Shown here: one piece after another, positions 14,044 through 41,144 of the stretch | Layout: each line of letters begins with the position of its first letter | How positions within the stretch are numbered: position 1 is the stretch's first letter | Origin: Candidatus Limnocylindria bacterium | GTDB taxonomy: Bacteria > Chloroflexota > Limnocylindria > QHBO01 | Length of the DNA stretch: 64,000 nt | Assembly (NCBI GenBank): GCA_036262075.1 | Contig: DATAJO010000040.1 | Coordinates: forward strand, 2,807-66,806 | Direction of reading: 5' to 3' | Notes under the pieces: generated by a model | The model's database searches: none | The model's input: the letters and a program-made list of their open reading frames with translations, nothing else | What the model was told of the DNA's origin: nothing | Translations under genes and position numbers: made by a program

Positions 14044-14124
14044 CCGATCTGATCCCGGCGTGATCCCGCAGCACGACCCTCCGGCGACCACTGCCGGAGG
14101 GTCGTCGCGCACTTCCCGGTCGAC

Positions 14125-19117: not shown

Positions 19118-19141
19118 GTCAGTACCCTCCTTCGCCCGACG

Positions 19142-20044: not shown

Positions 20045-20223
20045 GGGATCGGCCCCTCCTTGCGTGTTCCAACGCCATTGAACACCACGAGCATGGTGGC
20101 AGTCGCGTCAAGAGCGTGCGACACGCCGCACGGCGAGGATCTGGACGTGTGCACTACCATTGAACTTCGATCAGGAAGGTTCGCCGGCCATCGGCCTCGA
20201 CGCCCCAGTCCAGGAGGAAGCAG

Positions 20224-23517: not shown

Positions 23518-24416
23518 TGGTCCGCGTCGCCGTCGTCGGGACCGGGCGGATGGGCTCGGCGATGGCCCGCGCGCTCGCCCAGGGCGGGGCGACGCTCGTC
23601 CTCCACAACCGAACGCTGGAATCTGCCCGGTCCCTGGCCCAGGAGCTCGGCGCGTCGGTCGCCACCACGCCGCGCGAGGCGGCCGCGGCCGCCGACGTGG
23701 CGATCACGATGCTCGCCGACGGCGACGCGGTGCGGCAGACCTGGGACGGACCCAACGGGCTCGTCGCGGGCGCGCACGACGGAGGCGTCCTGGTCGACGC
23801 CTCGACCGTCCCGCCCGACACGATCACCGCGTTCGAGACGGCGGTCCGGGAGCGCGGCTCGGGGATCGTCGACGCGCCCGTCTCGGGCAGCACGAAGCTC
23901 GCGACCGACGGCCAGCTGACGATCATGGCCGGCGGCCGTCCCGAGGATCTCGAGCGGGCGAAGCCGGCGCTCGACCTCGTCGCGCGGCACACGACCCACG
24001 TCGGGCCGCTCGGCAGCGGCGCCGCGCTGAAGCTGGCGGTCAACGCACTGATCTTCGCGCTCAACAACAGCCTCGCCGAGGCCCTCGTGCTGGCCGAGCG
24101 CGCGGGCATCGACCCGCGGACCGCGTACGAGGTGTTCGCCTCGTCCGCCGCCGGCGCCCCGTACGTCGGCTACAAGCGCGACGCGTACCTCGCGCCGGAC
24201 GAGACGCCCACGGCCTTCTCCCTCGACCTTGCCCTCAAGGACCTCGGCCTCATCCTCGGCCTGGCCGATCGGCTCGGCGTGCCGACGGACCAGATCCGCG
24301 TCAACCAGCAGCTCATCGGCGCGACCGCGCGCCGCATCGGTGGCGACCGCGACATGTCGGCGGTTGCCGTTCACCTGCGCGAGCAATCCGAGGAGGGTGC
24401 CCGGGCCGAGACCTAG
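23517..24416 (+). CDS. NAD(P)-dependent oxidoreductase, 3-hydroxyisobutyrate dehydrogenase (HIBADH)/6-phosphogluconate dehydrogenase-like family
   Basis: N-terminal Rossmann motif VAVVGTGRMGSAMA and a catalytic region (GSGAALKLAVNAL). ATG overlaps the E1-beta stop (ATGA). Confidence 0.88.
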   Translation: MVRVAVVGTGRMGSAMARALAQGGATLVLHNRTLESARSLAQELGASVATTPREAAAAADVAITMLADGDAVRQTWDGPNGLVAGAHDGGVLVDASTVPPDTITAFETAVRERGSGIVDAPVSGSTKLATDGQLTIMAGGRPEDLERAKPALDLVARHTTHVGPLGSGAALKLAVNALIFALNNSLAEALVLAERAGIDPRTAYEVFASSAAGAPYVGYKRDAYLAPDETPTAFSLDLALKDLGLILGLADRLGVPTDQIRVNQQLIGATARRIGGDRDMSAVAVHLREQSEEGARAET

Positions 24417-24439
24417 ACCGAGACCGTCCCAACCCATCG

Positions 24440-25885
24440 GTGCATTTGGAGAACGGAGGCTGCGTACCTGTGACTGACCGAATCCTCATCCGCGGCGGCA
24501 CCGTCCTGACCCAGGACCCGAACCTGGGCGAGATCGCGAAGGGCGACGTCCTCGTCGAGGACGGCAGGATCGTCGACGTCGGCCCCAACCTCTCGGCCGA
24601 TGGGGCACGCGTCATCGATGCGGCCGGCGACATCGTCATTCCCGGGTTCATCGACACGCACCGCCACACGTGGGAGACGTGCATCCGGACCTGCGCGCCG
24701 GACTACGCGCTGATCACGTACTTCGGCTCGATCCTCGACAAGTTCGCGCCGCACTATCGCCCCGAGGACGTCCACTCCGCGACCCTGTGGGGCGCGCTCG
24801 AGTGCCTGAACGCCGGGATCACCACGCTCGTCGACTGGGCGCACATCATGAACACGCCCGAGCACGCGGATGCATCGGTCAAGGCGCTCCAGGAGTCCGG
24901 CATCCGATCCGTCTTCGCCTTCGGCTTCCCGAACACCTCGCTCCAGGACTGGTGGTTCGGCCCGGACTACGCCGGATCGGTCCTCACCTCCGATGGCGAC
25001 GAGGCGCGGCGCCTGAAGTCCACCTACTTCAACGCCGATGACGGCCTCGACGGCCGGATCACGATGGGCCTCGCCACCCGCGGCCCGGGCTTCTGCAAGC
25101 CGGATGTCGTCCGCCACGACTGGGAGCTCGCCAAGGAGCTCGGCATCAACATCACCGTCCACGTCGCGATGGACCGATTCGGCTACACGAAGGGCCAGAT
25201 CACCGCGCTGCGCGACATGGACCTGCTCTACCCCGGCACGACGTACGTCCACGCCTCGCACTTCACCGACGAGGAATGGGCGCTGGTCCGCGACTCAGGC
25301 GGGAACGTCAGCTTTGCGCCGCAGATCGAGATCCAGATGGGCCACGGCTGGGCCCCGGCCGTCACCGCGTTGGAATATTCGGTGCCGATCGGACTGTCCT
25401 CCGACGTCGCCACCACCGCATCGGCCGATCAGTTCACCCAGATGCACGCCATCCTCGGCTCCGAGCGCGGCCGCAAGCACCAGGACGCGTGGGACGCGAA
25501 CCTCGATGGTCTCGAGGCGTCACCCGGCCTCATCACCTCGCGCCAGGCGCTCGAGTGGGGCACCCTCGGCGGCGCGCGCGTCGCCGGCATCGAGGACCGC
25601 ACCGGCTCGCTGACGCCGGGCAAGCAGGCGGACATCGTGATCATCGACGGCTCCGCGGTGAACGTGGCCCCGATCATCGATCCCGTCGGCGCGGTCGTCT
25701 GCGCGGCCGACGTGTCGAACGTGAAGACCGTCCTCGTGGGCGGCAACGTCGTGAAGGAGGACTTCAAGCTCGCCGCCTCGCTCGACGGCCCGCGCCGCGC
25801 GGTCGAGGCCTCGCGGGACTACCTCCTCGAGAAGTTCGGCGCCCCCGACCCCGGCTGGATCGCCCCTTCGGCTTCCGCCGGCTGA
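24440..25885 (+). CDS. Amidohydrolase-family metal-dependent hydrolase (cytosine/guanine deaminase-like)
   Basis: TIM-barrel amidohydrolase signature: GFIDTHRHTWE (HxH metal ligands), later HV/HAS and the D of SSD. Confidence 0.85.
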   Translation: MHLENGGCVPVTDRILIRGGTVLTQDPNLGEIAKGDVLVEDGRIVDVGPNLSADGARVIDAAGDIVIPGFIDTHRHTWETCIRTCAPDYALITYFGSILDKFAPHYRPEDVHSATLWGALECLNAGITTLVDWAHIMNTPEHADASVKALQESGIRSVFAFGFPNTSLQDWWFGPDYAGSVLTSDGDEARRLKSTYFNADDGLDGRITMGLATRGPGFCKPDVVRHDWELAKELGINITVHVAMDRFGYTKGQITALRDMDLLYPGTTYVHASHFTDEEWALVRDSGGNVSFAPQIEIQMGHGWAPAVTALEYSVPIGLSSDVATTASADQFTQMHAILGSERGRKHQDAWDANLDGLEASPGLITSRQALEWGTLGGARVAGIEDRTGSLTPGKQADIVIIDGSAVNVAPIIDPVGAVVCAADVSNVKTVLVGGNVVKEDFKLAASLDGPRRAVEASRDYLLEKFGAPDPGWIAPSASAG

Positions 25886-25958
25886 CCCCGCTCTTCGGGC
25901 CGGCTGACCTCGTCCCTCGGCCCACGCGCCGTCCTTCGGCCCATCGGGCCGCCCGGAA

Positions 25959-25989
25959 CCCGCGAAAGCTCCGCGGCGGCCCGTTTTCG
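25959..25989 (+). terminator. Candidate intrinsic terminator (CCGCG-AAAGCTC-CGCGG stem-loop followed by GGCCCGTTTTCG)
   Basis: Read directly downstream of the amidohydrolase stop; short GC stem plus a T4 tract. Confidence 0.3.
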
Positions 25990-26108
25990 TGCTCGGCGAT
26001 CGCGCAACAGCCACGAAAGCCCACGGAACAGAGCTGGATGGGGCCGGTGGTATCCTTCTTGCCTTCCCTGAACGGGCAGAGATTCCACACGAAGGGACGC
26101 AAATCGCC

Positions 26109-26432
26109 ATGTTCAGCCGCGTACGAATCGCGATTCGCTTCTTCTTCGTCGGCCTGGCGGTTGGCGTGCTCCTCGCCCCCCGGAGCGGCGAAGAAACCCG
26201 CCGCATGCTGCGCGAGCGGGCCGATCGGCTCCTGAACGACATCCTCGACGCGGCATCGCTCGGTGCGGGCGGAGGGGCCTCCGCCTCCGGCACGACGCCG
26301 GATGAAGAGGCCACGGCGCCGCGCACGAGCCGATCGTCGAACGGCAGCGGAACGAGCTCGAGCCGCAGCCGCAAGGCGAGCACCGCATCGGAATCCGAGA
26401 CCGAGGCGGAGGCCACGAGCGCCGGGGCCTAG
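26109..26432 (+). CDS. YtxH-domain small membrane-associated protein
   Basis: MFSRVRIAIRFFFVGLAVGVLLAPRSGEETRRMLRERADRLL matches the YtxH motif (G-x3-G-x3-LLAPxSGxETR). It is followed by a Gly/Ser/Thr/Glu-rich tail. Start coordinate is +/-1 nt. Confidence 0.6.
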   Translation: MFSRVRIAIRFFFVGLAVGVLLAPRSGEETRRMLRERADRLLNDILDAASLGAGGGASASGTTPDEEATAPRTSRSSNGSGTSSSRSRKASTASESETEAEATSAGA

Positions 26433-27801: not shown

Positions 27802-29120
27802 AGCGGCGGAACCTCCAGCGCACCGCGCTCGGCGCGAGGGGCGGCCACCCCGCGGGCGCCGGGCGTGTGCGGCACGCCGGCACGAGCCAGCTCCTCGTCG
27901 TAGACGTCCTCGATGCGCTTCACCTGCGCGTCGATGCTGAACCGATCGGCGACGGTCCGATAGCCGGCATCGGCCAGCCGATCGCGCAGCGGCGCATCGG
28001 CGAGAAGACAGACGATCGCGTCCGCCAGGGCGCCGGGATCCTCGGGCGGCACGAGCAGCCCGTCGACGCCCGAGGTGATGACTTCGGGCACGCCGCCGAC
28101 CGCCGTGCCGACGACCGGGACGCGGCGGGCCATGGCCTCGAGGATGCTGATTCCCTGCGCCTCGCGCAGCGACGGGAGGACAGCCACGGTCAGGTCGGCC
28201 GTGACGGCGGCGATGTCGTCGCGGCGCCCGGTGAAGATGACCCGCGAGGCGACGCCACGGCCCAACGCCCGTGCCTGGGCGCGCAGCGCATCGGCTTCGG
28301 AGCCCTCACCGACGATCGCCAGCCAGGCATCGGGGCGGCGCTCGAGGACGGACGGCCAGGCGTCGAGGAGATGCCGATGTCCCTTCTCGGGCTCGAGCCG
28401 GGCGACGACGCCGACCAGGGGCGCATCACCAGGAATGCCGAACTCGCGACGCAGGCGGCAGGCGGGCACCGGCGCGCGGAAGCGCGACAGGTCGACGCCG
28501 TTGGGAATGACGGCGAACCGCGCGTCACCGCGGCCCTCGTGGCGGACCTTGTGCTCGATCGCGGCCGACGGAACGATGAGCCGATCCATCGCCGGCGTGA
28601 GCGACGCGAGGAGCGCGACGTCCTCGGGCGGGCGGACGCGCGACGAGTGGACGGTGGCCATGATCACGGGGACCCCGGCCGCCACGGCGGCGCGGGTGCC
28701 GACGGTCTCGGCGCGGTACATGTGGGCGTGGACGAGATCGATCTCCTCGCGCCGCAGCCAGGCGGCCAGCTCGCGGACCGCCAGCTCGTCATCCGGCTCG
28801 TCGAGCACCTCGACCGCCAGGCCCAGCCGTCGAAGCCGATGCACCGCCGAGCCCTCGCTCAGCGACAGCGCCCGCACGTCGTACTTCGCCCGGTCCAGCC
28901 GTAGCAGCAGCCCGGTGTACGACTCCTGCGCCCCGCCGTTGCCGCCGGTGGCCAGCAGCTGGAGCAGCCGTGGGCGCGGATGGCTGCGCGACCGATGGAT
29001 CCGCCGATGCCGCGTGTAGCTCGCCCCGGCGATGGCGCCCTCGTGGTCGGGCGCGTGCTGGCGGGCCGATCCCGCCCGCCGGCGCCTCGGCGCAGTGGAC
29101 ATGCGCGTGGTATGGCTCAC
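27798..29120 (-). CDS. Glycosyltransferase, GT4 family (GT-B fold)
   Basis: C-terminal E-x7-E-type region (...ISILEAMARRVPVVGTAVGGVPEV...) and N-terminal GT4 sugar-acceptor domain. GTG start at 29120 sits inside a repeat-derived leader (see findings); the first ~45 aa are basic/low-complexity, so the true start may be downstream. Confidence 0.85.
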   Translation of the reverse strand: MSHTTRMSTAPRRRRAGSARQHAPDHEGAIAGASYTRHRRIHRSRSHPRPRLLQLLATGGNGGAQESYTGLLLRLDRAKYDVRALSLSEGSAVHRLRRLGLAVEVLDEPDDELAVRELAAWLRREEIDLVHAHMYRAETVGTRAAVAAGVPVIMATVHSSRVRPPEDVALLASLTPAMDRLIVPSAAIEHKVRHEGRGDARFAVIPNGVDLSRFRAPVPACRLRREFGIPGDAPLVGVVARLEPEKGHRHLLDAWPSVLERRPDAWLAIVGEGSEADALRAQARALGRGVASRVIFTGRRDDIAAVTADLTVAVLPSLREAQGISILEAMARRVPVVGTAVGGVPEVITSGVDGLLVPPEDPGALADAIVCLLADAPLRDRLADAGYRTVADRFSIDAQVKRIEDVYDEELARAGVPHTPGARGVAAPRAERGALEVPPL

Positions 29121-29400
29121 CCGGCGACGATAGGCCCCGGCGCTTTATCGGTCAAAGCGCCTTGGTGTGCGTTGGTTCGGCCCGTTCGCGCCGTGGCGAG
29201 AGGATTTCACCGGAAGGCCCGGAGGCGTTGCGTTTGCGCGCTGTGGCGAGCACTCGCACGCACGAAGGGCGCGCTGCGGCGCGGTTCACGCTTACCGGCT
29301 CTCGCCGCAGTCGACAAACGACGCGCCGCCAGCGCCTCACGTGAATTGTGCTCGCTCTGGCGAGAAGCGAGCCGGTAACCCGCCAGTAATCAGCCGATAA
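29121..29400. repeat. Intergenic repeat locus 1 (~1.5 units of the ~170-200 bp GC-rich repeat family; core GTGGCGAGCAC at 29243)
   Basis: Shares >80% identity over ~120 nt with units at 30.1, 31.5, 35.0 and 39.2 kb. Begins with the CGACGATAGGCCC...TATCGGTCAAAGCGCC leader also found at 31479. Confidence 0.85.
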
Positions 29401-29406
29401 GGACCG

Positions 29407-30102
29407 ATGGCGCACCATCGGCGCATGCGTCGAAGCCAATCGAGTCGCAGGCGATCCGCCGATCAGAGCGCCAAGATCGGGAGTGAGGTCGGCCTGGCCC
29501 GACGAACACAGGCGATGACCGTCCGCCAGGTGGCGGCGCGCGCCGGGGTGGCGTGGGAGACGGTCGCCCGGTCCGAGCTCGGCGATCCGAAGCTCAGCCT
29601 GGATCTGCTCGCGGCGATCACCGAGGCGGTCGGGCTGGACCTCGTCCTCTCGGTGTACCCCGGCAGACCGCCCAGCCTTCGCGACACCGGACAGCTGGCC
29701 TTGGCCCGGATGCTGATCGGCATCGCGCATCCATCGCTGACGCCGGAGCTCGAGGTGAACATCGGGCCGCATGGCGAGTCGATCGACCTCGTCTTCTTCG
29801 GGCCATCCGAGATCATCGCCTTCGAGATCGAGCGCCTCTACACCGATCACCAGGGCCAATATCGCCGCGCCAACGGTAAGCGCGAGGCGCTCGCCGCTCG
29901 TCATCAGCGCCCGGTTCGGCTCGTCCTCGCCGTCCAGGACACCCGGCGCAACCGTGCGGCCGTCGACCGGCACGAGCCGGTGATCCGCACCAGCCTTCCG
30001 GCCGGCAGCCGCGAGATCCTGCGCGCCATCCGCGAGGGAACGCCGCTGGGTCGAGATGGGTTGCTCTGGCTGCGCAAGCCACCCCGTGCGGACCCGGCGT
30101 AG
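29407..30102 (+). CDS. HTH-domain protein with C-terminal DUF559/Vsr-like (PD-(D/E)xK-fold) endonuclease-like domain; start uncertain (possibly ATG ~29515)
   Basis: HTH: MTVRQVAARAGVAWETVARSELGDPKLSLDLL. C-terminal IDLVFFGPSEIIAFEIERLYTDHQG...RPVRLVL follows the DUF559/Vsr pattern vDf...l.iE.DG..H...vlR. Confidence 0.55.
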   Translation: MAHHRRMRRSQSSRRRSADQSAKIGSEVGLARRTQAMTVRQVAARAGVAWETVARSELGDPKLSLDLLAAITEAVGLDLVLSVYPGRPPSLRDTGQLALARMLIGIAHPSLTPELEVNIGPHGESIDLVFFGPSEIIAFEIERLYTDHQGQYRRANGKREALAARHQRPVRLVLAVQDTRRNRAAVDRHEPVIRTSLPAGSREILRAIREGTPLGRDGLLWLRKPPRADPA

Positions 30103-30104
30103 CT

Positions 30105-30500
30105 GCCTGGGAATCTCGCCGCGTGCTCGCTGGGCCGAGAGCAATTCACCGGAAGGCCGATCCGCGTGGTGTTTTCGCGCTGTGGCGAGCACCGGCACGC
30201 ACGAACGGCACGCGGATGCGCCGCTCACGCTCCCAGGCTCTCGCCACGCTCGACAGATGACACGGGGATCGGGCATAGCGTGAAGAACGCTCGCTGTGGC
30301 GAGACGAACGCGGCGGCAGGCTGATCGGCGTGGCGTTTTCGTGCTGTGGCGAGCACCGGAGCGCAGGAAGGGCTTGCCCATGCGCCGCTCACGCTCCCAG
30401 GCCCTCGCCACACTCGACAGACGACGCGCCGGCGGCCCTATCGGTGAATAGCGCTCGCTGTGGCGCGCACCAGGGCCGTCGAACAGGGACAACGACGACG
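30105..30500. repeat. Intergenic repeat locus 2 (two units; cores at 30182 and 30345) between convergent genes
   Basis: GCTGTGGCGAGCACCGGCACGCACGAACGGCACGCGGATGCGCCGCTCACGCTCCCAGG is repeated twice ~165 nt apart. Confidence 0.85.
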
Positions 30501-30512
30501 CGGCGGCGGCCT

Positions 30513-31481
30513 TCAGTGGCAGTCGGTTGAGCCGATGTCGGCAGCGGCGGCCTCCGCATCGGCCTCGAGGAATCGCCAGTCGTAGCCGTCGGGCCGCAGT
30601 GTGAGCTCGAGCACGCCGTAGGAGTTGTCGATGGTGACCTCGCTACCGGCGTCCAGGTGCTCCACCTCGGTCAGCGGCCCGCCGCCGGTCCCGACCGTGA
30701 ACGCGCGCAGCCCGTCGCGTGGGGCGAAACGCTCGTAGAGGTGATCGTGTCCGACGAGCAGGACGTCGGCATCGGCCGCGACGAGCGCGTCCCAGAGCGG
30801 CGCCACGTCCTCGTCGTCGCCGTGCCGGCCGGAGCTGAAGCGCGGGTGATGCCAGTAGGCGAGCGTGCAGGTGGCGGGGTGCTGCGCTAGGTCGGCCGTG
30901 AGCCAGGTGAGCTGCTCCGATCCCTCGCCGCAGCCGATGAGGCGGCAGTTTGAGTTCAGCACCACGACATGCCAGGCGCCGAGGTCGTACGAGTACCACC
31001 CCTCGCCCGGCGTGCCGGCCGCGTCGCCGAAATACGCGGCATAGGCCTGACCGCCGTCGAGGAAGACGTCGTGGTTACCGAGGGCCGGACGCGTCCGATC
31101 CTTCCACGCGCCCCACACCGGGTCGTAGCACTCGCTGTACGTCTGCTCGCTCCCGTCCGGGTAGGCGAGATCGCCGAGCGTCGCCACCGTTGCCTCAGGG
31201 TCCAACCGCGCCACCAGGGAGCCGGTCGCCTCGTCCCCCTCGGCGTCACACACGGCGATGTCCCCGACCGCGATGAGCGTCGCCACCGGCGTCGGCGCCG
31301 CGCTGGCGTCGGCGGCCGGGGTGGACGATGAGCTCGGCGTGGGCGGTGGCTTCGTCGGGATCGCACGCGGTCCCGATGGCGAGCCACAGGCCGACATGGT
31401 CACGATCATGGCGAGCACGGCGAGCACTGAGGCGGCTCCAGCCCGCTGGCGCTTCGGGGACTTGCCCGTCGTGGGGGTCAC
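30513..31481 (-). CDS. Calcineurin-like metallophosphoesterase, lipoprotein (signal peptide + lipobox MSAC)
   Basis: Metallophosphoesterase motifs GDxxY...GNHD...GHDH (IAVGDIAVCD...GDLAYP...GNHDVF...VGHDHLYER). N-terminal KSPKRQRAGAASVLAVLAMIVTMSAC is a lipoprotein signal. GTG start at 31481 lies in the repeat-derived leader. The 650-aa annotated ORF extending to 32465 is an upstream read-through artefact. Confidence 0.8.
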   Translation of the reverse strand: MTPTTGKSPKRQRAGAASVLAVLAMIVTMSACGSPSGPRAIPTKPPPTPSSSSTPAADASAAPTPVATLIAVGDIAVCDAEGDEATGSLVARLDPEATVATLGDLAYPDGSEQTYSECYDPVWGAWKDRTRPALGNHDVFLDGGQAYAAYFGDAAGTPGEGWYSYDLGAWHVVVLNSNCRLIGCGEGSEQLTWLTADLAQHPATCTLAYWHHPRFSSGRHGDDEDVAPLWDALVAADADVLLVGHDHLYERFAPRDGLRAFTVGTGGGPLTEVEHLDAGSEVTIDNSYGVLELTLRPDGYDWRFLEADAEAAAADIGSTDCH

Positions 31482-31762
31482 CGGGCGACGATAGGCCCGG
31501 GCGCTCGTATCGGTCAAAGCGCCCCCGACCCGGCGCTGCGCTCGCTGTGGCGAGAGGAAGTCACCGGGAGGCCGATTCGCGCTGCGTTTTCGTGCTGTGG
31601 CGAGCACAGGCACGCACGAACGGCACGCGGATGCGCCGTTCACGCTCCCGGGCTCTCGCTCCAGTCGACAAACGACACGCGCCCAAGGCTTCAGGTGAAA
31701 AGCTCTCGCGGTGGCGAGAACAGCGACGGAGCGCCGGCGAGCGGATACCAGCGTGCTGAGGG
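31482..31762. repeat. Intergenic repeat locus 3 (one full unit, core at 31597, plus the shared leader motif)
   Basis: See locus 1; identical architecture (leader motif, ~20 nt, then GCTCGCTGTGGCGAGAGGAAGTCACCGGGAGGCCGAT...). Confidence 0.85.
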
Positions 31763-32596
31763 TTACGAATGCCAGGCTTCGTAGGCCTCGCCGACGACGG
31801 TCTCGAAGCGGAGGCCCATGAGGACGATGCCGGCGAAGCCGTGCTGGCGCGCCTGAGCGGCGCACTCCCTGGCCATCTGCCAGCCGAAGGCGCGCGCATC
31901 GGCCGATGAGAGGCCGGACAGGCGCTCGAGCAGACCGTCGGACACGGCGATGGCGCCGACGCGGGTGAGGCGGCGGACCCAGCGCTCGCTGAAGGGCGGC
32001 GTGATCTCGAGGTAGACGGCGGGGTCGCCGGGCTGGAGCTCGAGGCGCTGGGCGACATCGGCGACGGTCGAGGGATCCATGACCGGGCCGGTCGTGAAGA
32101 ACTGGCCGCCGACCTCGATGCGGCGGCGGAACATCCATCGGCGCGAGCGCGTGCTCATCCCGACCTCGAAGCCGGGGTCGGGCAGCTCGGACTGGAGCGC
32201 GCGGAGGTGCTCGACGATCTCGTACGAGTTCGACCAGTGCTCGACCTCGGGCAGCATGTCGCCCTGGACCACGAGGAACGAGGTCACGCCGTTGCCGATG
32301 GCGCCGCGCACCTCGGACTCGATGGCCAGGATGTTCCGATCGCGCGTCGAGCACACCACCGTCGGGCGCACGCCGGGAACGTCGTGCGTGATGCGGGCGG
32401 CGAAGGCGTAGGGCGAGACGCGGACCTGCTTGAACGGGTTGTCCGTGATGAGGACGTCCCGCCATCGGCCCTCGAGCTCCCGGTGGACCATCCCGGGCAG
32501 GCGCGGCGGGTTGATCTCGACCATCTCGACCCAGCCGCGCGGGGACGAGAGCTGCGGGCTCTCCGGCTGATCGTGGACGTGGGCTTCGGTCGTCAT
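31763..32596 (-). CDS. Methylenetetrahydrofolate reductase-family protein (MetF-like, divergent)
   Basis: MTHFR-like blocks: VEMVEINPPR (cf. SFEFFPP), VVCSTRDRN, FLVVQGD (cf. ILALRGD), QFFTTGPVMD (cf. ITQLFFD). ATG at 32596 overlaps the metE stop (ATGA), indicating a metE-metF operon. Confidence 0.7.
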   Translation of the reverse strand: MTTEAHVHDQPESPQLSSPRGWVEMVEINPPRLPGMVHRELEGRWRDVLITDNPFKQVRVSPYAFAARITHDVPGVRPTVVCSTRDRNILAIESEVRGAIGNGVTSFLVVQGDMLPEVEHWSNSYEIVEHLRALQSELPDPGFEVGMSTRSRRWMFRRRIEVGGQFFTTGPVMDPSTVADVAQRLELQPGDPAVYLEITPPFSERWVRRLTRVGAIAVSDGLLERLSGLSSADARAFGWQMARECAAQARQHGFAGIVLMGLRFETVVGEAYEAWHS

Positions 32597-34776
32597 GCGC
32601 CTCGAAGCGCGCGGGCGGCGGCGACCATGTCGCCGAGCTGTCGCTCGATCTCCTCCCAGCGACGCGTCTTCAGGCCGCAGTCGGGGTTGACCCACAGGTC
32701 CGACACGTCCATGAACTCGCGGAAGTGGCGCAGCCGATCGGTCATGACCTGCGACCCCGGCGTGTGCGGGGAGTGGACGTCGAACACGCCCGGCCCGATC
32801 TGGAGGTGGCCGTCACCGAACAGCTCGTAGAACTGGCGGATGTACGAGTCGTCCTTGGAGCGGCTGAACTCGATCGAGGCGACGTCGACGCCGGCATCGG
32901 ACCACAGCGGCACGATGTCCCCGAAGTCGCCGTAGCACATGTGCGTGTGCATCTGGACGTTGGCCGGCTGGTTGAACGCGTGGTTCAGCGCCGCCCGCAC
33001 GCCGCGGGCGTAGATCTCGCGCAGCTGCGGCGCGTCCTCGGTCGGCAGCGGCCAGCGCTCGCGGACGGCGGGCTCGTCGACCTGGATGATCCGGCAGCCG
33101 GCGGCGACGAGGTGGCCGACCTCCTCCGCGATCGGCTGGGCGACCGCCCAGAAGAGCCGATCGTCCGGCACGCCCGGCGGTCGGAACGACCAGTTCACGA
33201 TCGTGACCGGCCCGGTCAGCATGCCCTTCACCGGCTTGTCGGTGGCGTCCTGCGCAATCCGCCACTCGTCGACGGTCATCGGCTCGCTGATGGAGGGCGG
33301 CGCGTCGAGGATGGGGGCGCGAACGCATCGGGATCCATACGACAGGACCCAGCCGTTGCGGGTGGTGAAGAAGCCGTCCATCTGCTCGGCGAAGTACTCG
33401 ACCATATCGGTTCGCTCGAACTCGCCGTGGACGACGACGTCGATCCCCATCCGCTCCTGCCAGGCGACCGACTCGGTGATGAGCCGCGCCATCTCGCGGT
33501 CGTACTCCTCCCGGCCGATCTCTCCCTTGCCCAGGCGAACGCGGAGCTGGCGGACCTCGGCGGTCTGCGGCAGCGATCCGGTCGTGGTGGTCGGGAAGGC
33601 GGGCAGGCCGAGGTCGGACTGCGCATCCCGCCGCTCCGGCCGCGGCGCGCGCGGCACGAGCGAGCCGACCTCCGGCCAGGAGGCCATCGGCGGCTGGGTG
33701 ACCTCGGGGGTGCGTCCCTCGGACAGCGCAGCCGGCCATGCGGCCAACGCCCGAGCCTTCTCGCGGGCGAACTGGAAGCCCGCCGGCAGGTCCTCGCCCT
33801 CGACGGTGACGGGCAGGAACATCAGGCTCGTCGACGGCACGAGCCGCACTGCCTTGCCGTCGTCGGCGGCGCCCTCGAGGCCCGCGAGCGCGTCATGCGC
33901 CGCGGCGAAGTCATCCGGCCACACCGAGCGCCCGTCCATGACCGCCACGACATGCTCGGGCTGCGCCTCCCACGCCGGCGTCCCACGCAAGGAAGGAACG
34001 GAGGCAGCCGGAACCTGGACCGCCAGCCCGTGCCGTCCGAGCCGCTCGACGGTCTCGGCCGAGGGGCGGCCGAACTGGACGGTCACGAGCGGCGTGTGGC
34101 GCAGCTCGAACTCGTCGATGCGCTCGTAGGCGGCGTCGCGCAGGCGCCGGTCCTCGTCGGACAGGACCATGCCGAGGCACGGCTCGTCGAGCTGAAGGCG
34201 GAACGTCCGCCCGTCGAGCACCTGCTCGGAGCAGAAGGCCCACAGCGACTCGGCGGCGGTGCGCGCAACCTCGGTGATCGACAGGTCGCCCACGATCTTC
34301 GAGAGCTTCGCCAGGCTGTACGGGCCGAGGACCGCCCATGTCACGCCGTCCTGGTTGAGCGGCTGGCGCCACGGCAGCGGCCGGATCTCGTCGGGGAGGT
34401 CGTGGATCTCGGGGACGACGTAGTGGTAGTTCGTGTCGAACCACTTCGTCATCTCCCACGCCTCGCGCTCCGGCGTGCCGCGTGCGGCGGCGGTCAGCAC
34501 GCCGAACGGGTTGGCGTCGAGCCGCGGCCCCTCACCCTCGGGCGTGATGCCGAGCATGAGCGCGGTCTCGAGGACCTCGTCGTACAGGAAGTAGTCGTCG
34601 ACGGCGGAGCCGATGGCCTCGCGCTGCTCGTCGAGGTGCGCCTGCCGCAGCTCGGCGACGCGCTCGAGGAACGAATCGGTGTCCATCCTGCCGCTCCAGG
34701 CGCGCTCGAGCGCCCACTTGAGCTCGCGGTTGGGACCGATACGGGGGTAGCCGATGAGCTGCGCGGTGATCTGCAT
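32593..34776 (-). CDS. metE: 5-methyltetrahydropteroyltriglutamate--homocysteine S-methyltransferase (cobalamin-independent methionine synthase)
   Basis: 727 aa from MQITAQLIGYPRIGPNRELKWALERAWSG (canonical MetE N-terminus), with both UroD/MetE-like barrels and the C-terminal zinc-site region (...HMCYGDFGDI...). The annotated ORF extends upstream to 34968 through the leader. Confidence 0.92.
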   Translation of the reverse strand: MQITAQLIGYPRIGPNRELKWALERAWSGRMDTDSFLERVAELRQAHLDEQREAIGSAVDDYFLYDEVLETALMLGITPEGEGPRLDANPFGVLTAAARGTPEREAWEMTKWFDTNYHYVVPEIHDLPDEIRPLPWRQPLNQDGVTWAVLGPYSLAKLSKIVGDLSITEVARTAAESLWAFCSEQVLDGRTFRLQLDEPCLGMVLSDEDRRLRDAAYERIDEFELRHTPLVTVQFGRPSAETVERLGRHGLAVQVPAASVPSLRGTPAWEAQPEHVVAVMDGRSVWPDDFAAAHDALAGLEGAADDGKAVRLVPSTSLMFLPVTVEGEDLPAGFQFAREKARALAAWPAALSEGRTPEVTQPPMASWPEVGSLVPRAPRPERRDAQSDLGLPAFPTTTTGSLPQTAEVRQLRVRLGKGEIGREEYDREMARLITESVAWQERMGIDVVVHGEFERTDMVEYFAEQMDGFFTTRNGWVLSYGSRCVRAPILDAPPSISEPMTVDEWRIAQDATDKPVKGMLTGPVTIVNWSFRPPGVPDDRLFWAVAQPIAEEVGHLVAAGCRIIQVDEPAVRERWPLPTEDAPQLREIYARGVRAALNHAFNQPANVQMHTHMCYGDFGDIVPLWSDAGVDVASIEFSRSKDDSYIRQFYELFGDGHLQIGPGVFDVHSPHTPGSQVMTDRLRHFREFMDVSDLWVNPDCGLKTRRWEEIERQLGDMVAAARALRGA

Positions 34777-34927
34777 GGTGCCGCGCATGATCGCATGCTC
34801 GCTCGCCCCGTGCGGAAGGTGCGCGCCGTCACCACGCGACTCCCCCGGCGCGTTGTCTTGTCGGCCTGTGTCTCCGTGTGTCTGCGTGCCTCCACGTGCC
34901 TCCGCGCGGTGTGTTTGTGCGGTCGCT

Positions 34928-35395
34928 GCGTGCCGCTGCGTGTGCTCGCCGTGGCGAGAGGAATGCACGGGAGGCCGGATCTGCGCGCGCTTTGTCGAGT
35001 GTGGCGAGCACCGGCACGCACGAACCGCACGCCGATGCGCCCCTCACGCTCACCAGCGCTCGCCCCAGTCGACAAACGACACGCCGGGAGGGCTTCCGGT
35101 GAAAAGTTCTCGCCCTGGCGCGAACCGGAGCGCGAACCAGCGCCTCTGCTCGCTGTGGCGAGAGGAATGCACCGGAAGGCCGATCCACGCTGCGTTTTCG
35201 CGCTGTAGCGAGCACGGGCACGCACGAACCGCACGCCGATGCGCCCCTCACGCTCACCAGCGCTCGCTCCAGTCGACAAACGACACGCCACCAACGCTTC
35301 CGGTGAACAACGCTCGCTCCAGCGCGAACGGCGCCGATGCAAGGCGAGGCGACAGCAGGAACGCGCCGGAACGCGAAGAGACGCGAGCGGGGGCG
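34928..35395. repeat. Intergenic repeat locus 4 (two units; cores at 35001 and 35215) upstream of metE and downstream of the hybrid kinase gene
   Basis: Two ~200-nt units, >90% identical over the GTGGCGAGCAC...GTCGACAAACGACACGCC segment. Confidence 0.85.
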
Positions 35396-35401
35396 CAGGT
35401 C

Positions 35402-37885
35402 CTAGGTGCCGACCGGCTGCGTGACCGATCCGAGCCACTCCCGCAGCCCGGAGATGGCGGCGTCGCCCTTGGCCAGGACGCGGAGGGCGTGCCGGTTCAG
35501 GCGCTCCTTGGTGGCCTCGCTGAGGGTGTGGCCGGTGACGACGACGATCGGGATGTCGCGGGTGAGCGCATCGGCTCGGAGCTGGGCGGCAACCTGGAAG
35601 CCCGAGAGATCGGGGAGGACGAGGTCGAGGATGATGGCGTCGATGCCGCCGGCCATGGCGCGCTCGACGCCCTCGAGCCCGGTGCGGGCGGTGACGACGG
35701 TCAGGCCGTCCCGGCCACTGAGCGCGTTGCGGTAGAGGACGAGGGCGGCCGGATCGTCGTCGATCGCGAGCACCGTCCGTGGCGCATCGCCGCCGTTTAG
35801 CGATCGCGCCAGCGCGGTGACCAGCGTCTCGCGCGCGACGGGCTTCACGAAGTAGTCCTGCGCCCCGAGTGTCATGCCCAGCGCCGCGTCGTCGACGACG
35901 GTGACGACCATGACGGGGATCGCGCGCGTCGCGGGATCGGAGCGCAGGGCGCGCAGCACGTCCCAGCCGTCGACGCCGGGCAGGACGATGTCGAGGAGGA
36001 TCGCCGCCGGCGCCAGGGTGACGGCGGCCTTCAGGCCGCTCTCACCATCGACGGCCACGGCGGCGCGGTAGCCAGCCTGGCGCAGCTGGACGCGGAGCAG
36101 CTCGGCGGCCACGGCGTCGTCCTCGATGATGAGGACGAGCGGGCCCTTGCCGTCATCGGCCTCGACCGACCCGGCGTCGCGGATGACCGGGCGCTGCATC
36201 GGCAGATGGACGGAGAACGTGCTGCCGGTGCCGGCCTCGGAGGCGAGCTCGATCCGGCCACCATGGGCCTGGACCAGCCGGCGCGTGAGCGCCAGCCCGA
36301 GGCCGGTGCCCTCGGCGCTGCCGGGGGTGAGCTGCTCGAAGGCGGCGAAGATCCGCTCCTGGTCGGCCTCGGCGATGCCCGGACCGGTGTCGGCGAACCG
36401 CAGCACGACTCCGTCGTCGTCCGGCGCGACGGAGACGGACACCGAGCCCTCGGACGGGGTGAACTTGATCGCGTTCGAGAGGAGGTTGTAGACGATCTGG
36501 CGGAGCCGGGCCGCATCGGCCTCGAGGAAGAGGCTGGCGGGAAGCGAGGAGGTCAGCGCCAGGCGCTTCACCTCGGCCAGCGGCGTGACCGTGGCCATCA
36601 CCTCGCGCACGAGGGTAGCGGCATCGACGTCCTCGTAGCGCAGCTCGAGCCGGCCGGCCTCGACCCGCGACAGGTCGAGGATGTCGTTGATGAGGTCGAG
36701 CAGGTGCTCCCCGGCACGATGAATGTGCCCGGCGTACTCGCCGATCGACTCCTGGGTCAGCGGGGCCGGCGGCGTCTCGAGCAGCTCCGAGAAGCCGATG
36801 ATCGCGTTGAGCGGCGTCCGCAGCTCGTGGCTCATCGCGGCCAGGAAGTCGGACTTCGCGGCGCTGGCGCGCGCGAGCTCGACGTTCGTCGCCGCCAGCC
36901 GCTCGCCGATGGCGGTGCGCTCCTCGATGATCTTCTCCCGCTCGCTCGCGCCGAGCGTCTGGCTGCCGAGCATGGCGACCAGCGCGAGGTCGTCCTCCTC
37001 GAACAGCGCCGGGCCCGGGGTCCGGAGGCGCAGCGAGCCGGACATGTCGGCCATCGAGAAGGGGACGTCGGTGAGGTACGGCGCCAGGCCGTTCTCGACG
37101 CCGGCGGTGGCGATCGGCTGCGACGACCCGTTGACCCGCACCTCGGCGCCGAGCGCGCCGGTCAGGCCGATCGCCAGGTTCGCGAGCTCCTGCCACAGGC
37201 CGGCGGTCCCGGCGCCGGGCTGGGTACGGGCGAGGTCGTTGAAATAGCCGAAGGCGACCGCCTGCTGAATGACGCGGCGCAGCCAGCGGGGCGGGATGAA
37301 CGAGAGGATGAAGGCGACCGCGGCGAGGATGCCGACCCAGCGCGACAGCTCCGGACCCACCGGCCCGCCGGCCAGCAGCGCCACGATCGCCACCGCCAAC
37401 AGGGCCATCGCCCCGGCCGCGGCGAGAAGGCGCCAGCGCGCCAGGCCGGCCCGGCGCCGGCCCTCGCGAGCGAGGACGAAGGCCGCGACGCCGTCGCCGA
37501 CGACGAAGTACGCGCCGACGAGCCAGATGAGCCACGGGAACTGCTGTCCGAGGGTGAGGACGCTGGCGACCATCGCCACGTAGGCCACGACCATGGCCGG
37601 GAACGCCCAGCGTGGGACCGCGGCGGTGATGTGCTGCGTGAGGCGGATGGCGAACGCCGGCTGCGCCACGAGCAGCATCGAGCTGACGAGGTTGAGCAGC
37701 TCGCGGGCGGAGGGGAACAGGACGCCCAGGAACTGGAAGGCATAGAGGCCCGCCAGCGAGGAGAACATCAGGAGGATGTCGAACGCGATCCGGTTGCGCT
37801 GGGTGATGAAGCCGACGAGGGCAACCAGGAACAGCAGGTAGAACGCGCCCTGGAGGATGATGGCGTCCATCGACGGCTCGGCCAC
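35402..37885 (-). CDS. Hybrid sensor histidine kinase: N-terminal 7TM sensor - HisKA - HATPase_c - REC - REC
   Basis: ~270-aa hydrophobic N-terminus (7 TM). HisKA H-box SHELRTPLNAIIGFSELL. N, G1 (DTGPGI) and G2 (GTGLGL) boxes. Two receiver domains (LVLIIEDD... and VLAIDDDP...) with conserved Asp. Confidence 0.9.
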   Translation of the reverse strand: MAEPSMDAIILQGAFYLLFLVALVGFITQRNRIAFDILLMFSSLAGLYAFQFLGVLFPSARELLNLVSSMLLVAQPAFAIRLTQHITAAVPRWAFPAMVVAYVAMVASVLTLGQQFPWLIWLVGAYFVVGDGVAAFVLAREGRRRAGLARWRLLAAAGAMALLAVAIVALLAGGPVGPELSRWVGILAAVAFILSFIPPRWLRRVIQQAVAFGYFNDLARTQPGAGTAGLWQELANLAIGLTGALGAEVRVNGSSQPIATAGVENGLAPYLTDVPFSMADMSGSLRLRTPGPALFEEDDLALVAMLGSQTLGASEREKIIEERTAIGERLAATNVELARASAAKSDFLAAMSHELRTPLNAIIGFSELLETPPAPLTQESIGEYAGHIHRAGEHLLDLINDILDLSRVEAGRLELRYEDVDAATLVREVMATVTPLAEVKRLALTSSLPASLFLEADAARLRQIVYNLLSNAIKFTPSEGSVSVSVAPDDDGVVLRFADTGPGIAEADQERIFAAFEQLTPGSAEGTGLGLALTRRLVQAHGGRIELASEAGTGSTFSVHLPMQRPVIRDAGSVEADDGKGPLVLIIEDDAVAAELLRVQLRQAGYRAAVAVDGESGLKAAVTLAPAAILLDIVLPGVDGWDVLRALRSDPATRAIPVMVVTVVDDAALGMTLGAQDYFVKPVARETLVTALARSLNGGDAPRTVLAIDDDPAALVLYRNALSGRDGLTVVTARTGLEGVERAMAGGIDAIILDLVLPDLSGFQVAAQLRADALTRDIPIVVVTGHTLSEATKERLNRHALRVLAKGDAAISGLREWLGSVTQPVGT

Positions 37886-39025
37886 CTACGCGGCCGGAGG
37901 CTCGGGGATGACCGGCTGGCCGGGCTCGGGCTCGACGCCGCCGCCGTCCTCGACGGTCGCGACGAACAGGTCCGTCAGGACCGGGTCGAACTGGTTGCCG
38001 GACTGGGAGCGGATCTCCTCCAGCGCATCGGCGGTGCTGCGGGCCGCGCGGTAGCTGCGGTCGTGGGTCATGGCGTCGAACGCATCGGCCAGGGCGACGA
38101 TCCGCGCGCCGAGCGGGATGGACTCGCCGCTCAGGCCGTCGGGGTAGCCGCGGCCGTTCCAGTGCTCGTGGTGGTGGCGGATGATCGGCAGGAAGCCGAT
38201 GGCCGCGCCGAGCGGCCGGCAGATGCGCTCCCCGATCTCGGGGTGCTTCTTCATCAGTTCCCACTCGTCGGCGTCGAGTGGACCGGGCTTGGTGAGGATC
38301 GCCTCCGGGATGCCGATCTTGCCGACGTCGTGGAGAAGGGCGCCGTAGGCGATCGTCTCCTCCTCGTCGTGGTCGAGGCCGACGCGCTCGGTCAGCCGGG
38401 CGGCGAGGAACGCGAGCCGCTGGCAGTGATGCTCGGTCATCGGGTCCTTGGCCTCGACCGCGTTCGCCAGCGTCGCGACGACGGCGTGGGCCGATTCCAT
38501 GCGCACCAGCGCGGCGCGCAGCCGCAGGGCTGACCGGATGCGCGCGAGGAGCTCCGGCTGCCGGAACGGCTTGGCGAGGTAGTCATCGGCTCCGACGCCG
38601 AGCCCGTGGACGATGTCGTCGAGCTGCACGCGCGCCGTGAGCATGATGATCGGCAGCGTCGCGTTCTTCGGGTCCTGGCGGAGCCGGGTGCACACCTCGA
38701 GGCCGTCCATGCCGGGCAGGCCGACATCGAGGACCACGAGGTCGGGGCTGTCGCTGGCGACGCGCTTCAGCGCGTCCTCGCCGTTGGCCTCGGCCACCAC
38801 GTCGTACCCCGCGCCGCCCAGGACGCGGGTCATGAGCAGCCGGCTGGCAGGATCATCCTCGACGACCAGGATCGTCGGCTTCGCTCGCCCGATGAGCTGC
38901 GGGCCGCGAATGGTCAGCGGCTCTGGCTCGGACTCCGGCTCGGGCTCGGGCTCTGGCGCGTCGGGACGGCGTGGGTGGAGCATCTCCCCTCGGATTGGTT
39001 GTTGATGCAAAATAAATGCTTGCAC
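37886..39025 (-). CDS. Response regulator with HD-GYP output domain (RpfG-like c-di-GMP phosphodiesterase)
   Basis: REC domain (ILVVEDDPASRLLM...DLVVLDVGLPGMDG...KPF), then HD-GYP (LLHDVGKIGIPE...HHHEHWNGRGYPDGL...ADAFDAMTHDRSYR). The N-terminal PEPEPEPESEPEPL stretch is encoded by a GAGCC-type hexanucleotide tandem at ~38919-38960; the start may be the internal ATG at ~38983. Confidence 0.9.
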   Translation of the reverse strand: MQAFILHQQPIRGEMLHPRRPDAPEPEPEPESEPEPLTIRGPQLIGRAKPTILVVEDDPASRLLMTRVLGGAGYDVVAEANGEDALKRVASDSPDLVVLDVGLPGMDGLEVCTRLRQDPKNATLPIIMLTARVQLDDIVHGLGVGADDYLAKPFRQPELLARIRSALRLRAALVRMESAHAVVATLANAVEAKDPMTEHHCQRLAFLAARLTERVGLDHDEEETIAYGALLHDVGKIGIPEAILTKPGPLDADEWELMKKHPEIGERICRPLGAAIGFLPIIRHHHEHWNGRGYPDGLSGESIPLGARIVALADAFDAMTHDRSYRAARSTADALEEIRSQSGNQFDPVLTDLFVATVEDGGGVEPEPGQPVIPEPPAA

Positions 39026-39059
39026 GGTAGGGTAGCCGATGCGCTAGGACCTTCGGGCT

Positions 39060-39619
39060 AGTTACGTGTGCCACGGCGCGGCCTTGGGCCGGCCTTGGGC
39101 CGGCTTCGCTCCGGTCCGCAGGTCCGCGGTACCTGGCGCACCGCTGCTCGCCACACCGAGAGGAATGCGCCGGAAGCCTTCTCTGGGCGCGGGATGTCGA
39201 GTGTGGCGAGCACCCGCACCCACGAACCGCACGCCGATGCGCCCCTCACGCTCACCAGCGCTCGCCCCAGTCGACAAACGACACGCCAGCAAGGCTTCCG
39301 GTGAACTCTGCTCGCTCCAGCGCGAGCGGCGCGTCGTGTGTCTACGTCCCTGCCGCGTTTGCTCGCTCCAGCGCGAGCGACGCGGTGTGTGCCTGCGCTT
39401 CGCTGCGTGTGCTCGCTCCAGCGAGAAGAATGCACCGGAAGGCCGATCCGCGCGGCGTTTACGCGCTGTGGCGAGCACCCGCACGCACGAACCGCGCGCC
39501 GATGCGCCCCTCACGCTCACCGGCTCTCGCTGCAGTCGACACACGACACGCCGCCAACCCTTCCGGTGAACAACGCTCGCTCCAGCGCGAGCGCCGCCGA
39601 TGAACGAGACGACGGCGGC
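39060..39619. repeat. Intergenic repeat locus 5 (2.5-3 units; cores at 39203 and 39468) upstream of the RR-HD-GYP/kinase operon
   Basis: Also contains an 11-bp mini-tandem GGCCTTGGGCC x2 at ~39083-39106. Confidence 0.85.
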
Positions 39620-40198
39620 CTATTCGGCCTTCGCCGGCATCAGCCGCATGACGAGGCCGATGAAGGCGGTGATCCCGGCGATGCTGAACAGCACGATGCC
39701 GATCACGCGCGGGATCCAGTTCCGGCCGAACAGCTCCGGAGCGTAGGTCAACGTAGCGAGGAAGCCCGCCAGGGCGAAGACCGACACGAGGATGCCGACC
39801 GCGAAGGCCCACGGGTTCGCCGCTCGCATCTCGGCCGCCGACCAACGCAGCGCGACCGCGTAGAGGAGGAGGCCGGCGGTGAGCGCGGCCAGGATCGGGA
39901 TGTCGCCCGAGCGCTCGGGATTGTTGAGCGTCACGATGGTGAAGAGCGCGCTGAGGAAGACGAGGCCCATCGACAGCCGGCTGTACGTCGAGAAGACGCG
40001 CGCCGGAATCTCGCCGACGACGACCGGCACGCGTTCGACCTGCGCCTGGCGACGCTCACGCTCGCGTCGGTGCTGCTCGACGGTGGCCGCATCGGCGTCA
40101 CGTGGGGTCTTGCATCGGTAGCAGCGCGCGTCGCGCGCCCGGTTCGGCTTCCAGCAGGAACGGCAGATCCATCCGTCGGCGAACGTCATGCGTCGCAT
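39620..40198 (-). CDS. Hypothetical membrane protein with N-terminal zinc-ribbon (CxxC...CxxC) and 4 TM helices
   Basis: Start ATG at 40198 (MRRMTFADGWICRSCWKPNRARDARCYRCK...) preceded by SD GGAGGGAGGG (minus strand of 40201-40210). C-terminal hydrophobic segments. Confidence 0.55.
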   Translation of the reverse strand: MRRMTFADGWICRSCWKPNRARDARCYRCKTPRDADAATVEQHRRERERRQAQVERVPVVVGEIPARVFSTYSRLSMGLVFLSALFTIVTLNNPERSGDIPILAALTAGLLLYAVALRWSAAEMRAANPWAFAVGILVSVFALAGFLATLTYAPELFGRNWIPRVIGIVLFSIAGITAFIGLVMRLMPAKAE

Positions 40199-40249
40199 CC
40201 CTCCCTCCGCCCGCATGCTCGGTCGGCGGGCGTGGGCCGATGCTACGAG

Positions 40250-40335
40250 ATCAGCACAAGCGCCCGATCAGGACAAGCGCCCGATCAGGACAAAGAGCCC
40301 GACAGGAGAAGAGCCCGATCAGGACAGGAGGGCGA
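40250..40335 (-). repeat. Five tandem direct repeats of a ~17-bp unit (GATCAGGACAAGCGCCC on + strand) immediately upstream of the Zn-ribbon membrane protein gene
   Basis: Read directly: gatcagcacaagcgccc / gatcaggacaagcgccc / gatcaggacaaagagccc / gacaggagaagagccc / gatcaggacaggagggcg. Overlaps the last codons of the upstream gene. Confidence 0.8.
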
Positions 40336-40648
40336 GCGAGAGGCTGTTCGTGGCGAAGCCCAGGAAGCCGAGTGCCGTGGTGGCGGCGCCGCCCCACACG
40401 AACAGGCGCGGGAACCGGCGGGCGGTGGCCACGAGCAGCGCGATGGTGCCCACGATGACGATGCCCTTCGCGACCAATACGGCCTCGAGCCCGCCGATGG
40501 CGAACAGGCCGGACGCGAGGCCGTTGCTCTCGACGCCGATCCCGAATCGGCTGACGCCGATGGTGAAGGTCAGGGCATCGGTGAGCTGGGCGAGCACCAT
40601 GCCGAAGAGGATGAGTCGAGGGGCCAGCACGCCATCGGTCCCATGCAT
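40319..40648 (-). CDS. Small hypothetical integral membrane protein (~110 aa, 3-4 TM)
   Basis: Hydrophobic ORF (MHGTDGVLAPRLILFGMVLAQL...); start ambiguous (ORF open to 40708). Confidence 0.4.
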   Translation of the reverse strand: MHGTDGVLAPRLILFGMVLAQLTDALTFTIGVSRFGIGVESNGLASGLFAIGGLEAVLVAKGIVIVGTIALLVATARRFPRLFVWGGAATTALGFLGFATNSLSLALLS

Positions 40649-41144
40649 GAACCGTACCGATGGGCCGGGCGCCATCCGTATGCCCCGCGGGTGGCCCGTC
40701 CGGGTCATGGGCGCGAACGCACCGGCAGCCGATACTCAGCCGGTCATCCGCCCAACCGAGGGACTCATCCCATGGAAGCCGTCATCCCGATCTTCCTGCT
40801 CTTCGTCGCCGTGCTCGCCTTCGCGTGGTTCTACCTCCAGCGGGCCAAGGCCCGGACGACGAACGCGCCGACCGCCGGCAGCGACTCGCACGACTCCCCG
40901 AACAGCTGACCTCGTCGAGGGCCTGAGCGCTTGACAGCCGCGCGCATCGTGAGCCGATGCGGGCGCTGCTCGTCCTCGTCCTGGTCGTGATCCTCGTGGG
41001 CGCCGGCCTGAAGCTGGCGGGCGTCCCGCTTCCCTTCATCGACTACGCCGTCGGCCCGATGGGCGAGGGACGCGGTCCTGGCATGCCCGACGTCGTCATC
41101 GAGGCACCCGGCTTCGGGGACAGCGACCAGCTCCCCTAGCCCTG

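Follow-up and report, generated by a model that had tools for sequence, protein, structure and literature searches.

Compound palindromic repeats bracketing a putative helix-turn-helix nuclease gene in Limnocylindria: a possible repeat-plus-enzyme system

The stretch of Candidatus Limnocylindria DNA analyzed here (64 kb of contig DATAJO010000040.1; hereafter, the window) contains a repeat region in which five consecutive intergenic gaps inside approx. 10.5 kb are occupied by units of a single repeat family, each approx. 190 nt long (approx. 180-198 nt). The genes that border these gaps include a GT4 gene, a metallophosphoesterase gene, an MTHFR-like gene, metE, a hybrid histidine kinase (HK) gene and a response regulator (RR)-HD-GYP gene. 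The sole plus-strand gene of the region encodes a protein with a predicted XRE-type helix-turn-helix (HTH) and a predicted PD-(D/E)xK nuclease fold, and is called here the HTH-nuclease gene. The repeats bracket this gene and mark the edges of inserted and duplicated gene blocks (Table 1), which suggests an undescribed repeat-plus-enzyme system that reshuffles this stretch of the chromosome. For comparison, the window was set beside loci L007, L008, L009, L010, L011, and L012; the window and these loci, seven in all, together represent at least six uncultured Limnocylindria (Chloroflexota) assemblies.

Repeat finding in the window returned a single family; its eight copies, each of 198 nt, all lie on the plus strand, and their gap-free alignment gives pairwise identities of 63-89%. 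A 26-base core pattern matches exactly these eight units in the 64 kb and has no match in 100 shuffles, and nhmmer profiles, including iterated ones, find no ninth unit in the window, the other 53 kb of which are empty. The eight-copy, same-orientation family that a preliminary description had placed in five intergenic gaps is thus borne out, as are the core and arm sequences quoted there. Two of its core starts were slightly off (GTGGCGAGCAC lies at 30346 and not 30345, GTAGCGAGCAC at 35205 and not 35215), and where it counted one to three tandem units per gap, there are one or two full units, with an orphan terminal hairpin added at the fifth locus. The repeat region is not an assembly artefact, a possibility raised in the same description, because any two copies show 11-37% difference, because L002, an independent Logan assembly of short reads, matches the window at 100% identity until its break inside u8, and because L004, a relative of 94% nucleotide identity, has units at the corresponding loci.

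Table 1. Repeat units and associated features in the window and in the compared loci
Feature	Position	Strand	Remarks
Inserted block	29121..40318		Comprises HTH-nuclease gene and four gene blocks; syntenic L008 lacks it between GT4 and 118-aa gene
GT4 5' end with promoter-like TTGACC-17-TATCGT	29097..29165	-	Ends 6 nt before GTG start; copy at 31458-31527
Unit u1	29180..29377	+	Between GT4 gene start and HTH-nuclease gene start
HTH-nuclease gene	29407..30102	+	231 aa; predicted N-terminal XRE-type HTH and C-terminal PD-(D/E)xK nuclease fold; proposed cognate enzyme
Unit u2	30119..30316	+	Starts 17 nt past HTH-nuclease stop codon
Unit u3	30283..30480	+	Terminal hairpin common to u2 and u3
Copy of GT4 promoter and first codons	31458..31527	-	Heads metallophosphoesterase gene; TTGACC-18-TATCGT
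Unit u4	31534..31731	+	Between MTHFR-like gene end and metallophosphoesterase gene start
Unit u5	34938..35135	+	Upstream of metE
Unit u6	35142..35339	+	Downstream of hybrid HK gene; L004 positional orthologue 91% identical
Unit u7	39140..39337	+	Upstream of RR-HD-GYP gene; L004 orthologue 87% identical
Orphan terminal hairpin (S-site)	39360..39397	+	Between u7 and u8
Unit u8	39405..39602	+	L004 counterpart has three tandem copies, mutually 94-99% identical
Units, L008	9774-9958 and 10730-10910		Two more nearby
Units, L009			978-nt contig; units at both ends, flanking the gene
Units, L007			Three units flanking the gene
Units, L011			Three units flanking the gene
Units, L010			Two units flanking the gene
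Units, L012			Two units flanking the gene

An alignment of 24 units from six genomes gives the layout S1 - TTCACCGGA arm - S2 - core - S3 - AAACGACACGCC - TCCGGTGAA arm - S4, that is, a nested imperfect palindrome with four 14-bp sites per unit (CTCGC-N4-GCGAG). S1 and S4 are 14-bp palindromes that have exactly this form in the window and are shared by tandem units; S2 retains the right half only and S3 the left half only, so that the two make an inverted pair around the core. Because the reverse complement of each unit is matched by the unit profile (positions 5-189, with E-values of 1e-20 to 1e-9), each unit is one long imperfect palindrome. In particular, 92.5% of cells are paired between S1-right and S4-left, 97.2% between CAC and GTG, and 90.8% between S2-right and S3-left, as compared with 71% and 62% in the local hairpins of S2 and S3; as judged from the alignment, these counts support nested long-range symmetry over local inner hairpins. 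Across genomes, the long-range model has 92.9% of cells paired and compensatory changes in 8 of 13 pairs, and none of 500 shuffles reaches the observed values. Exact CTCGC-N4-GCGAG occurs seven times in the window and exact CTCGA-N4-TCGAG nine times in L011, three times in L008 and once in L010, always inside units, and the sites of L007 are of the CTCCATGGAG type. The 14-bp sites are specific to the units and to each genome. A divergent unit subfamily is present at L008 7048-7201, with GCCGAT-AT-ATCGGC sites; its core points the opposite way from those of the three remaining L008 units, and there is an overlap between its last site and a TTGACCGAT motif immediately upstream of the next gene. 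The preliminary description was right to call the units hairpin-rich and REP-like.

Such symmetry could also act at the level of RNA: the units may be transcribed with the minus-strand operons, and their long hairpins may stabilize, process or terminate mRNA, as proposed for REP and ERIC repeats. The earlier suggestion of a structured RNA receives weak, lineage-specific support from the window and L004, in which all seven transition differences between core arms appear as G.U when read on the minus (sense) strand and as A.C when read on the plus strand (two-sided p approx. 0.016). Moreover, the sense strand folds better by 19-35 kcal/mol in all five L004 units and by 8-23 kcal/mol in five of the eight window units, and RNAalifold gives -50.7 kcal/mol for the minus strand vs. 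-41.7 kcal/mol for the plus strand. However, L007 and L008 are without strand preference, unit orientation, as read from the core, is reversed between the syntenic L008 and L011, and what is conserved in the core across genomes is its sequence (CTCACGCTCAC), with next to no pairing in the consensus. Rfam yields no match at the gathering threshold and, at E up to 5, none within units; a search of the units for U-tract terminators was likewise negative. In addition, u1, upstream of the predicted leaderless GT4 promoter, has divergent genes on its two sides, and strand-biased C-to-T mutation could yield the same G.U excess. Action at the DNA level is favored over action as RNA because strand preference is missing from L007 and L008, the core flips, there is no core consensus structure and the units have no terminator-like tails; we consider an RNA role decidedly unlikely. 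A coding role was rejected, as substitutions are without three-base periodicity (37/35/40) and there is no conserved start codon. CRISPR arrays, which the preliminary description had set aside, are likewise rejected: the units are approx. 190 nt long, homologous along their whole length and separated by genes, rather than being short identical repeats with unique spacers.

The association of the units with the HTH-nuclease gene extends beyond the window. Units, in the form of diverged copies, lie on both flanks of the gene in seven of the seven loci compared, and all copies seen are within 10 kb of it. With an iterated profile, no unit is found in L005 or L006, which comprise 42 kb of related DNA obtained via the RR gene and without the HTH-nuclease gene. 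There are three different chromosomal contexts in which units bracket the gene; one of them is the map/infA junction of the ribosomal gene cluster, at which the module is found in both L010 and L012. The nuclease proteins of these two loci are 69% identical and their Map proteins 86%, from which stable inheritance of the module at map/infA follows; protein divergence roughly parallels that of host genes. L012 also has an extra 84-aa open reading frame (ORF) at 4845-5099, between map and the left unit, which has no Pfam match and is absent from the equivalent L010 insertion.

The HTH-nuclease protein itself matches no Pfam family at default thresholds, its nuclease domain is covered by no NCBIfam, PADLOC or Pfam model, and its homologues in Candidatus Limnocylindria metagenome-assembled genomes bear the annotation of XRE regulators. 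An AlphaFold2 model based on 32 homologues (predicted local distance difference test score, pLDDT, 92.7) predicts both the alpha-beta-beta-beta-alpha-beta core of the PD-(D/E)xK fold and a five-helix HTH of the Cro/C1 type; XRE HTH proteins, including the controller proteins of restriction-modification systems, are among its top structural matches. Across the 32 diverse homologues, D127 and E140 are invariant and E142 is at least 90% conserved; in the model these residues occupy predicted strands 2 and 3, the expected place of the nuclease motif, and the invariant K158 and R159 lie in the next helix. The two-domain family comprises 581 clusters at 50% identity (E <= 1e-10), and no relatives of the protein were found in phage or plasmid collections. 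The recognition helix of the HTH begins with AWET in the window, with SWST in L008, L010, and L011, and with GWAT in L007, a distribution suggestive of a 14-bp site class that tracks the recognition helix. At every locus, the last S-site lies approx. 40-50 nt upstream of the gene's own start codon.

This last position, together with the location of four of the five window loci 5' of genes and the structural match to XRE HTH proteins, restriction-modification controllers included, could mean that the protein is mainly a repressor or an architectural protein, that the units are multi-site platforms for regulating or insulating the operons beside them and the gene of the protein itself, and that the nuclease fold is inactive or otherwise used. 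We regard such operator arrays as unlikely, since the 32 homologues show little or no variation at the acidic positions of the nuclease motif, the units downstream of the HTH-nuclease gene (30105-30500) sit between convergent genes, and full-length conservation over 190 nt with an asymmetric core far exceeds what an operator needs. Moreover, operator arrays leave unexplained the indels and duplications that are bounded by units.

These rearrangements are apparent when the window is compared with L007, L008, and L011, with which it has in common a conserved backbone (YtxH-PCMT-YggT-GT4(-)-118-aa gene). In L008 and L011, a unit-gene-unit module lies between a sigma-54 activator gene and YtxH, a junction occupied by other DNA in the window, where the module is found beyond GT4 and is followed by the metallophosphoesterase, MTHFR-MetE, HK-RR and 198-aa protein blocks. 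Units separate these blocks from each other, and there is none between the 198-aa gene and the homologue of the 118-aa gene (40346-40675). Because GT4 and the 118-aa gene adjoin in L008, where they are 42 nt apart, the whole repeat region of approx. 10.5-11 kb is one indel. Its being an insertion vs. a relative, and the HTH-nuclease gene among the repeats, had both been missed by the preliminary description. The gene of a 74%-identical homologue (P0122) is the immediate neighbor of the MTHFR gene, the metallophosphoesterase gene being missing from between the two, as judged by gene order only. The sigma-54 activator and YtxH genes mark a second variable junction: they are 13.7 kb apart in the window (12359-26109), with no units between, and are separated in L008 and L011 by the 1.26-kb unit-gene-unit module alone. 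Five tandem 17-nt units (CAGGACAAGCGCCCGAT-like) occupy 40252-40335, the gap from the 198-aa gene to the 3' end of the homologue of the 118-aa gene, where the inserted block has its right edge.

Duplications also coincide with units. Two 97%-identical segments of approx. 230 nt enclose an additional 330-aa gene in L007; they run from within the 3' end of the nuclease gene to the last site of the unit. In the window, the segment composed of the first GT4 codons, the promoter and u1 is duplicated as the first metallophosphoesterase codons, the promoter and u4. The duplicated flanks are 230-285 nt long and overrun the units by 25-70 nt into unique DNA. Since the duplications include adjacent unique DNA, they point to homologous or unequal recombination or to single-crossover integration and not to transposition of a discrete element, and the uniform orientation of the units is explained in the same way, because such events yield direct repeats. 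The duplicated promoters correspond to sigma-70-like sites at 29127-29155 and 31488-31517 (minus strand), which end 6 nt before the GTG of GT4 and of the metallophosphoesterase gene, respectively, and therefore imply leaderless mRNAs; a GGCGCTTT...AAAGCGCC hairpin has the -35 element in its loop, and in L008, too, GT4 is preceded by a homologous promoter. No other promoter-like site exists in 28.9-39.8 kb, and the two sit beside u1 and u4, respectively, outside the units and in a separate short repeat, contrary to the earlier proposal that the units themselves carry promoters.

Close relatives differ at unit boundaries in the number of array copies and in the genes present, and the recombination hotspot envisaged in the preliminary description fits these unit-bounded indels and duplications. 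L004 has four units where the window has two; its neighboring units are 92-99% identical, and positional orthologues in the window and L004 are 78-91% identical, vs. 94% in the flanks. Within the window, u6 and u8 are 90% identical despite lying 4 kb apart. At the HK gene, the units begin right after the kinase stop codon in the window (35340-35402) and L004, both of which are missing the third, small response-regulator gene that ends the RR-HK operon in L005 (13627-14037) and L006 (13502-13972). The metE leader (34800-34937), in which Rfam gives no cobalamin or SAM riboswitch, is GT-rich and imperfectly repetitive (GTGTCTCCGTGTGTCTGCGTGCCTCC...), and similar GTGTGT-rich linkers lie between u7 and u8.

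Rearrangements of this kind could be the work of the palindromes alone, fragile sequences that spread by intrinsic slippage, template switching and unequal recombination, with the HTH-nuclease gene as a passenger in a hotspot. The inclusion of adjacent unique DNA in the duplications, the tandem amplification in L004 and the match of every unit to its own reverse complement all accord with such passive spread, which we nevertheless hold to be very doubtful, given that the gene is bracketed by units in three chromosomal contexts, including map/infA, that the sites co-vary with the recognition helix, and that related loci without the gene have no units. Classical MITEs (miniature inverted-repeat transposable elements), that is, non-autonomous transposons moved in trans by a conventional transposase encoded elsewhere, would account for the palindromic ends, the intergenic location and the breaks of short-read assemblies in units. 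This reading, offered in the preliminary description, is weakened by the duplicated segments that run past unit ends into unique DNA and is, in our estimate, most improbable: all eight copies are uniformly oriented and occupy consecutive gaps of a 10.5-kb stretch, no target-site duplication is seen, the repeat boundaries vary, and 23 scanned neighboring ORFs have no transposase or integrase domain. Moreover, core-pattern searches gave chance matches only: there was one in 185,579 species genomes, in a TPR coding region, and two scans of JGI metagenomes returned nothing and one AT-rich match, respectively. The strict core is thus confined to the source lineage, and diverged units were detected solely via the neighborhoods of protein homologues. 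In support of the preliminary description, which had called the family previously undescribed, it is absent from Rfam, and no description of it was found in the literature searched or in Pfam, NCBIfam or PADLOC.

We tentatively favor, at a little short of an even chance, the reading that the units are compound palindromes acting at the DNA level, which form a cognate pair with the HTH-PD-(D/E)xK nuclease, resemble REPIN/RAYT systems and serve as a recombination hotspot. On this proposal, an HTH dimer would bind the 14-bp CTCG...CGAG sites, four per unit, and the nuclease domain would nick or cut the DNA, either at the sites so bound or where hairpins are extruded. Subsequent repair, through homologous recombination, unequal exchange or single-crossover integration, could duplicate units, homogenize them between neighboring gaps and insert or delete the gene blocks between them. 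On this view, the direct repeats left by each event would account for the single orientation of the units in the array, and the adjacent unique DNA carried along in duplicated segments would be accounted for as well.

Several points weigh against a cognate pair of repeats and nuclease. Binding and cleavage of the sites by the protein are predictions from sequence, nuclease activity being predicted only, and the third catalytic position is E142 rather than K, an arrangement that we take to resemble BamHI. The correlation between helix and site covers five genomes and three classes, and covariation of the sites cannot tell protein-binding palindromes from hairpins. Palindromes are recombinogenic without a dedicated enzyme. 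The compared loci were picked because they carry the gene, each of those outside the 64-kb window spans at most 21 kb, and the statement that units occur only near the gene covers approx. 170 kb of sampled DNA. Finally, an empty map/infA site was not recovered, the sole relative compared (L012) also carries the module, and mobility thus has no direct evidence.

Another version of the proposal, which we judge distinctly unlikely, sees in the nuclease and its approx. 190-nt palindromic sites a gene-shuffling platform that captures, duplicates and deletes gene blocks beside the nuclease gene. The blocks would include housekeeping operons (metE-metF) and a two-component system, and, by analogy, such a platform might fulfill the function of an integron through nuclease-induced homologous repair, with no tyrosine recombinase; we give this analogy the same low probability.

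Limnocylindria are an abundant, uncultured lineage of soil and freshwater, and to our knowledge REPIN-RAYT is the only well-studied case of an enzyme with its own extragenic palindromes. If the pairing of units and HTH-nuclease is functional, it would constitute a second case, different in mechanism, of a domesticated enzyme accompanied by extragenic palindromes of its own. A new family of sequence-specific nucleases (approx. 580 clusters at 50% identity), with sites that can be read from the flanking DNA, would be defined as well, and local genome plasticity and assembly breaks in Limnocylindria would be explained.

Among known systems, MITEs differ in the respects that no target-site duplication is seen here and that the ends are not fixed, as duplications overrun the units by the 25-70 nt given above. 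Free-standing homing endonucleases resemble the present case in being small site-specific nuclease genes (here by prediction) that lie between conserved genes, as at map/infA in L010 and L012, and that are possibly spread by break repair; however, the protein described here diverges roughly with host genes and is always embedded in long palindromic units, and no cleavage target, intron or intein context is known for it. The ERIC/IRU and BIME families are likewise long (>100 nt) imperfect palindromes or hairpin mosaics that are intergenic and possibly transcribed, but they have no sequence relation to the units and belong to a different phylum, and we know of no dedicated flanked enzyme gene of the HTH-nuclease type in them. 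The arrangement is reminiscent of integrons (IntI, attI/attC), with an enzyme gene at one end of an array of gene blocks that are split by imperfect palindromic sites in the same orientation and are variably present between relatives. In contrast to integrons, no integrase domain is found in any ORF scanned (25-43.6 kb) and there is no tyrosine recombinase; the sites are approx. 190 nt long and often tandem, the blocks, which converge on the enzyme gene, include multi-gene housekeeping operons with their own promoters, and integration appears to be homology-driven, with the duplicated flanks of 230-285 nt.

The closest comparison is with REP/REPIN-RAYT systems (REPtrons), which have a single-copy enzyme gene that is inherited mostly vertically and lies between extragenic palindromes of its own (PMC3337134, PMC3733652, bioRxiv 10.1101/2022.05.22.493013). 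REPs are described as palindromes of 20-40 nt with a GTAG or CGTC tag at one end (PMC3733652). The units reported here are instead approx. 180-198 nt long, have four 14-bp CTCG...CGAG sites and bear no such tag. The enzyme is a predicted XRE-HTH plus PD-(D/E)xK protein, not an HUH Y1 (IS200/IS605-like) transposase, and no Y1_Tnp match was found among the neighboring ORFs scanned. Copies in the window and in the loci of at most 21 kb are clustered within 10 kb of the gene in direct orientation, and recombination rather than single-strand transposition is indicated by the flanking DNA that the duplications take in. What the two have in common is a gene flanked by its own palindromic repeats, here in seven of seven loci, with a divergence that parallels that of host genes, and repeats that are built of inverted hairpin pairs and whose lineage-specific sequence appears to co-evolve with the enzyme.

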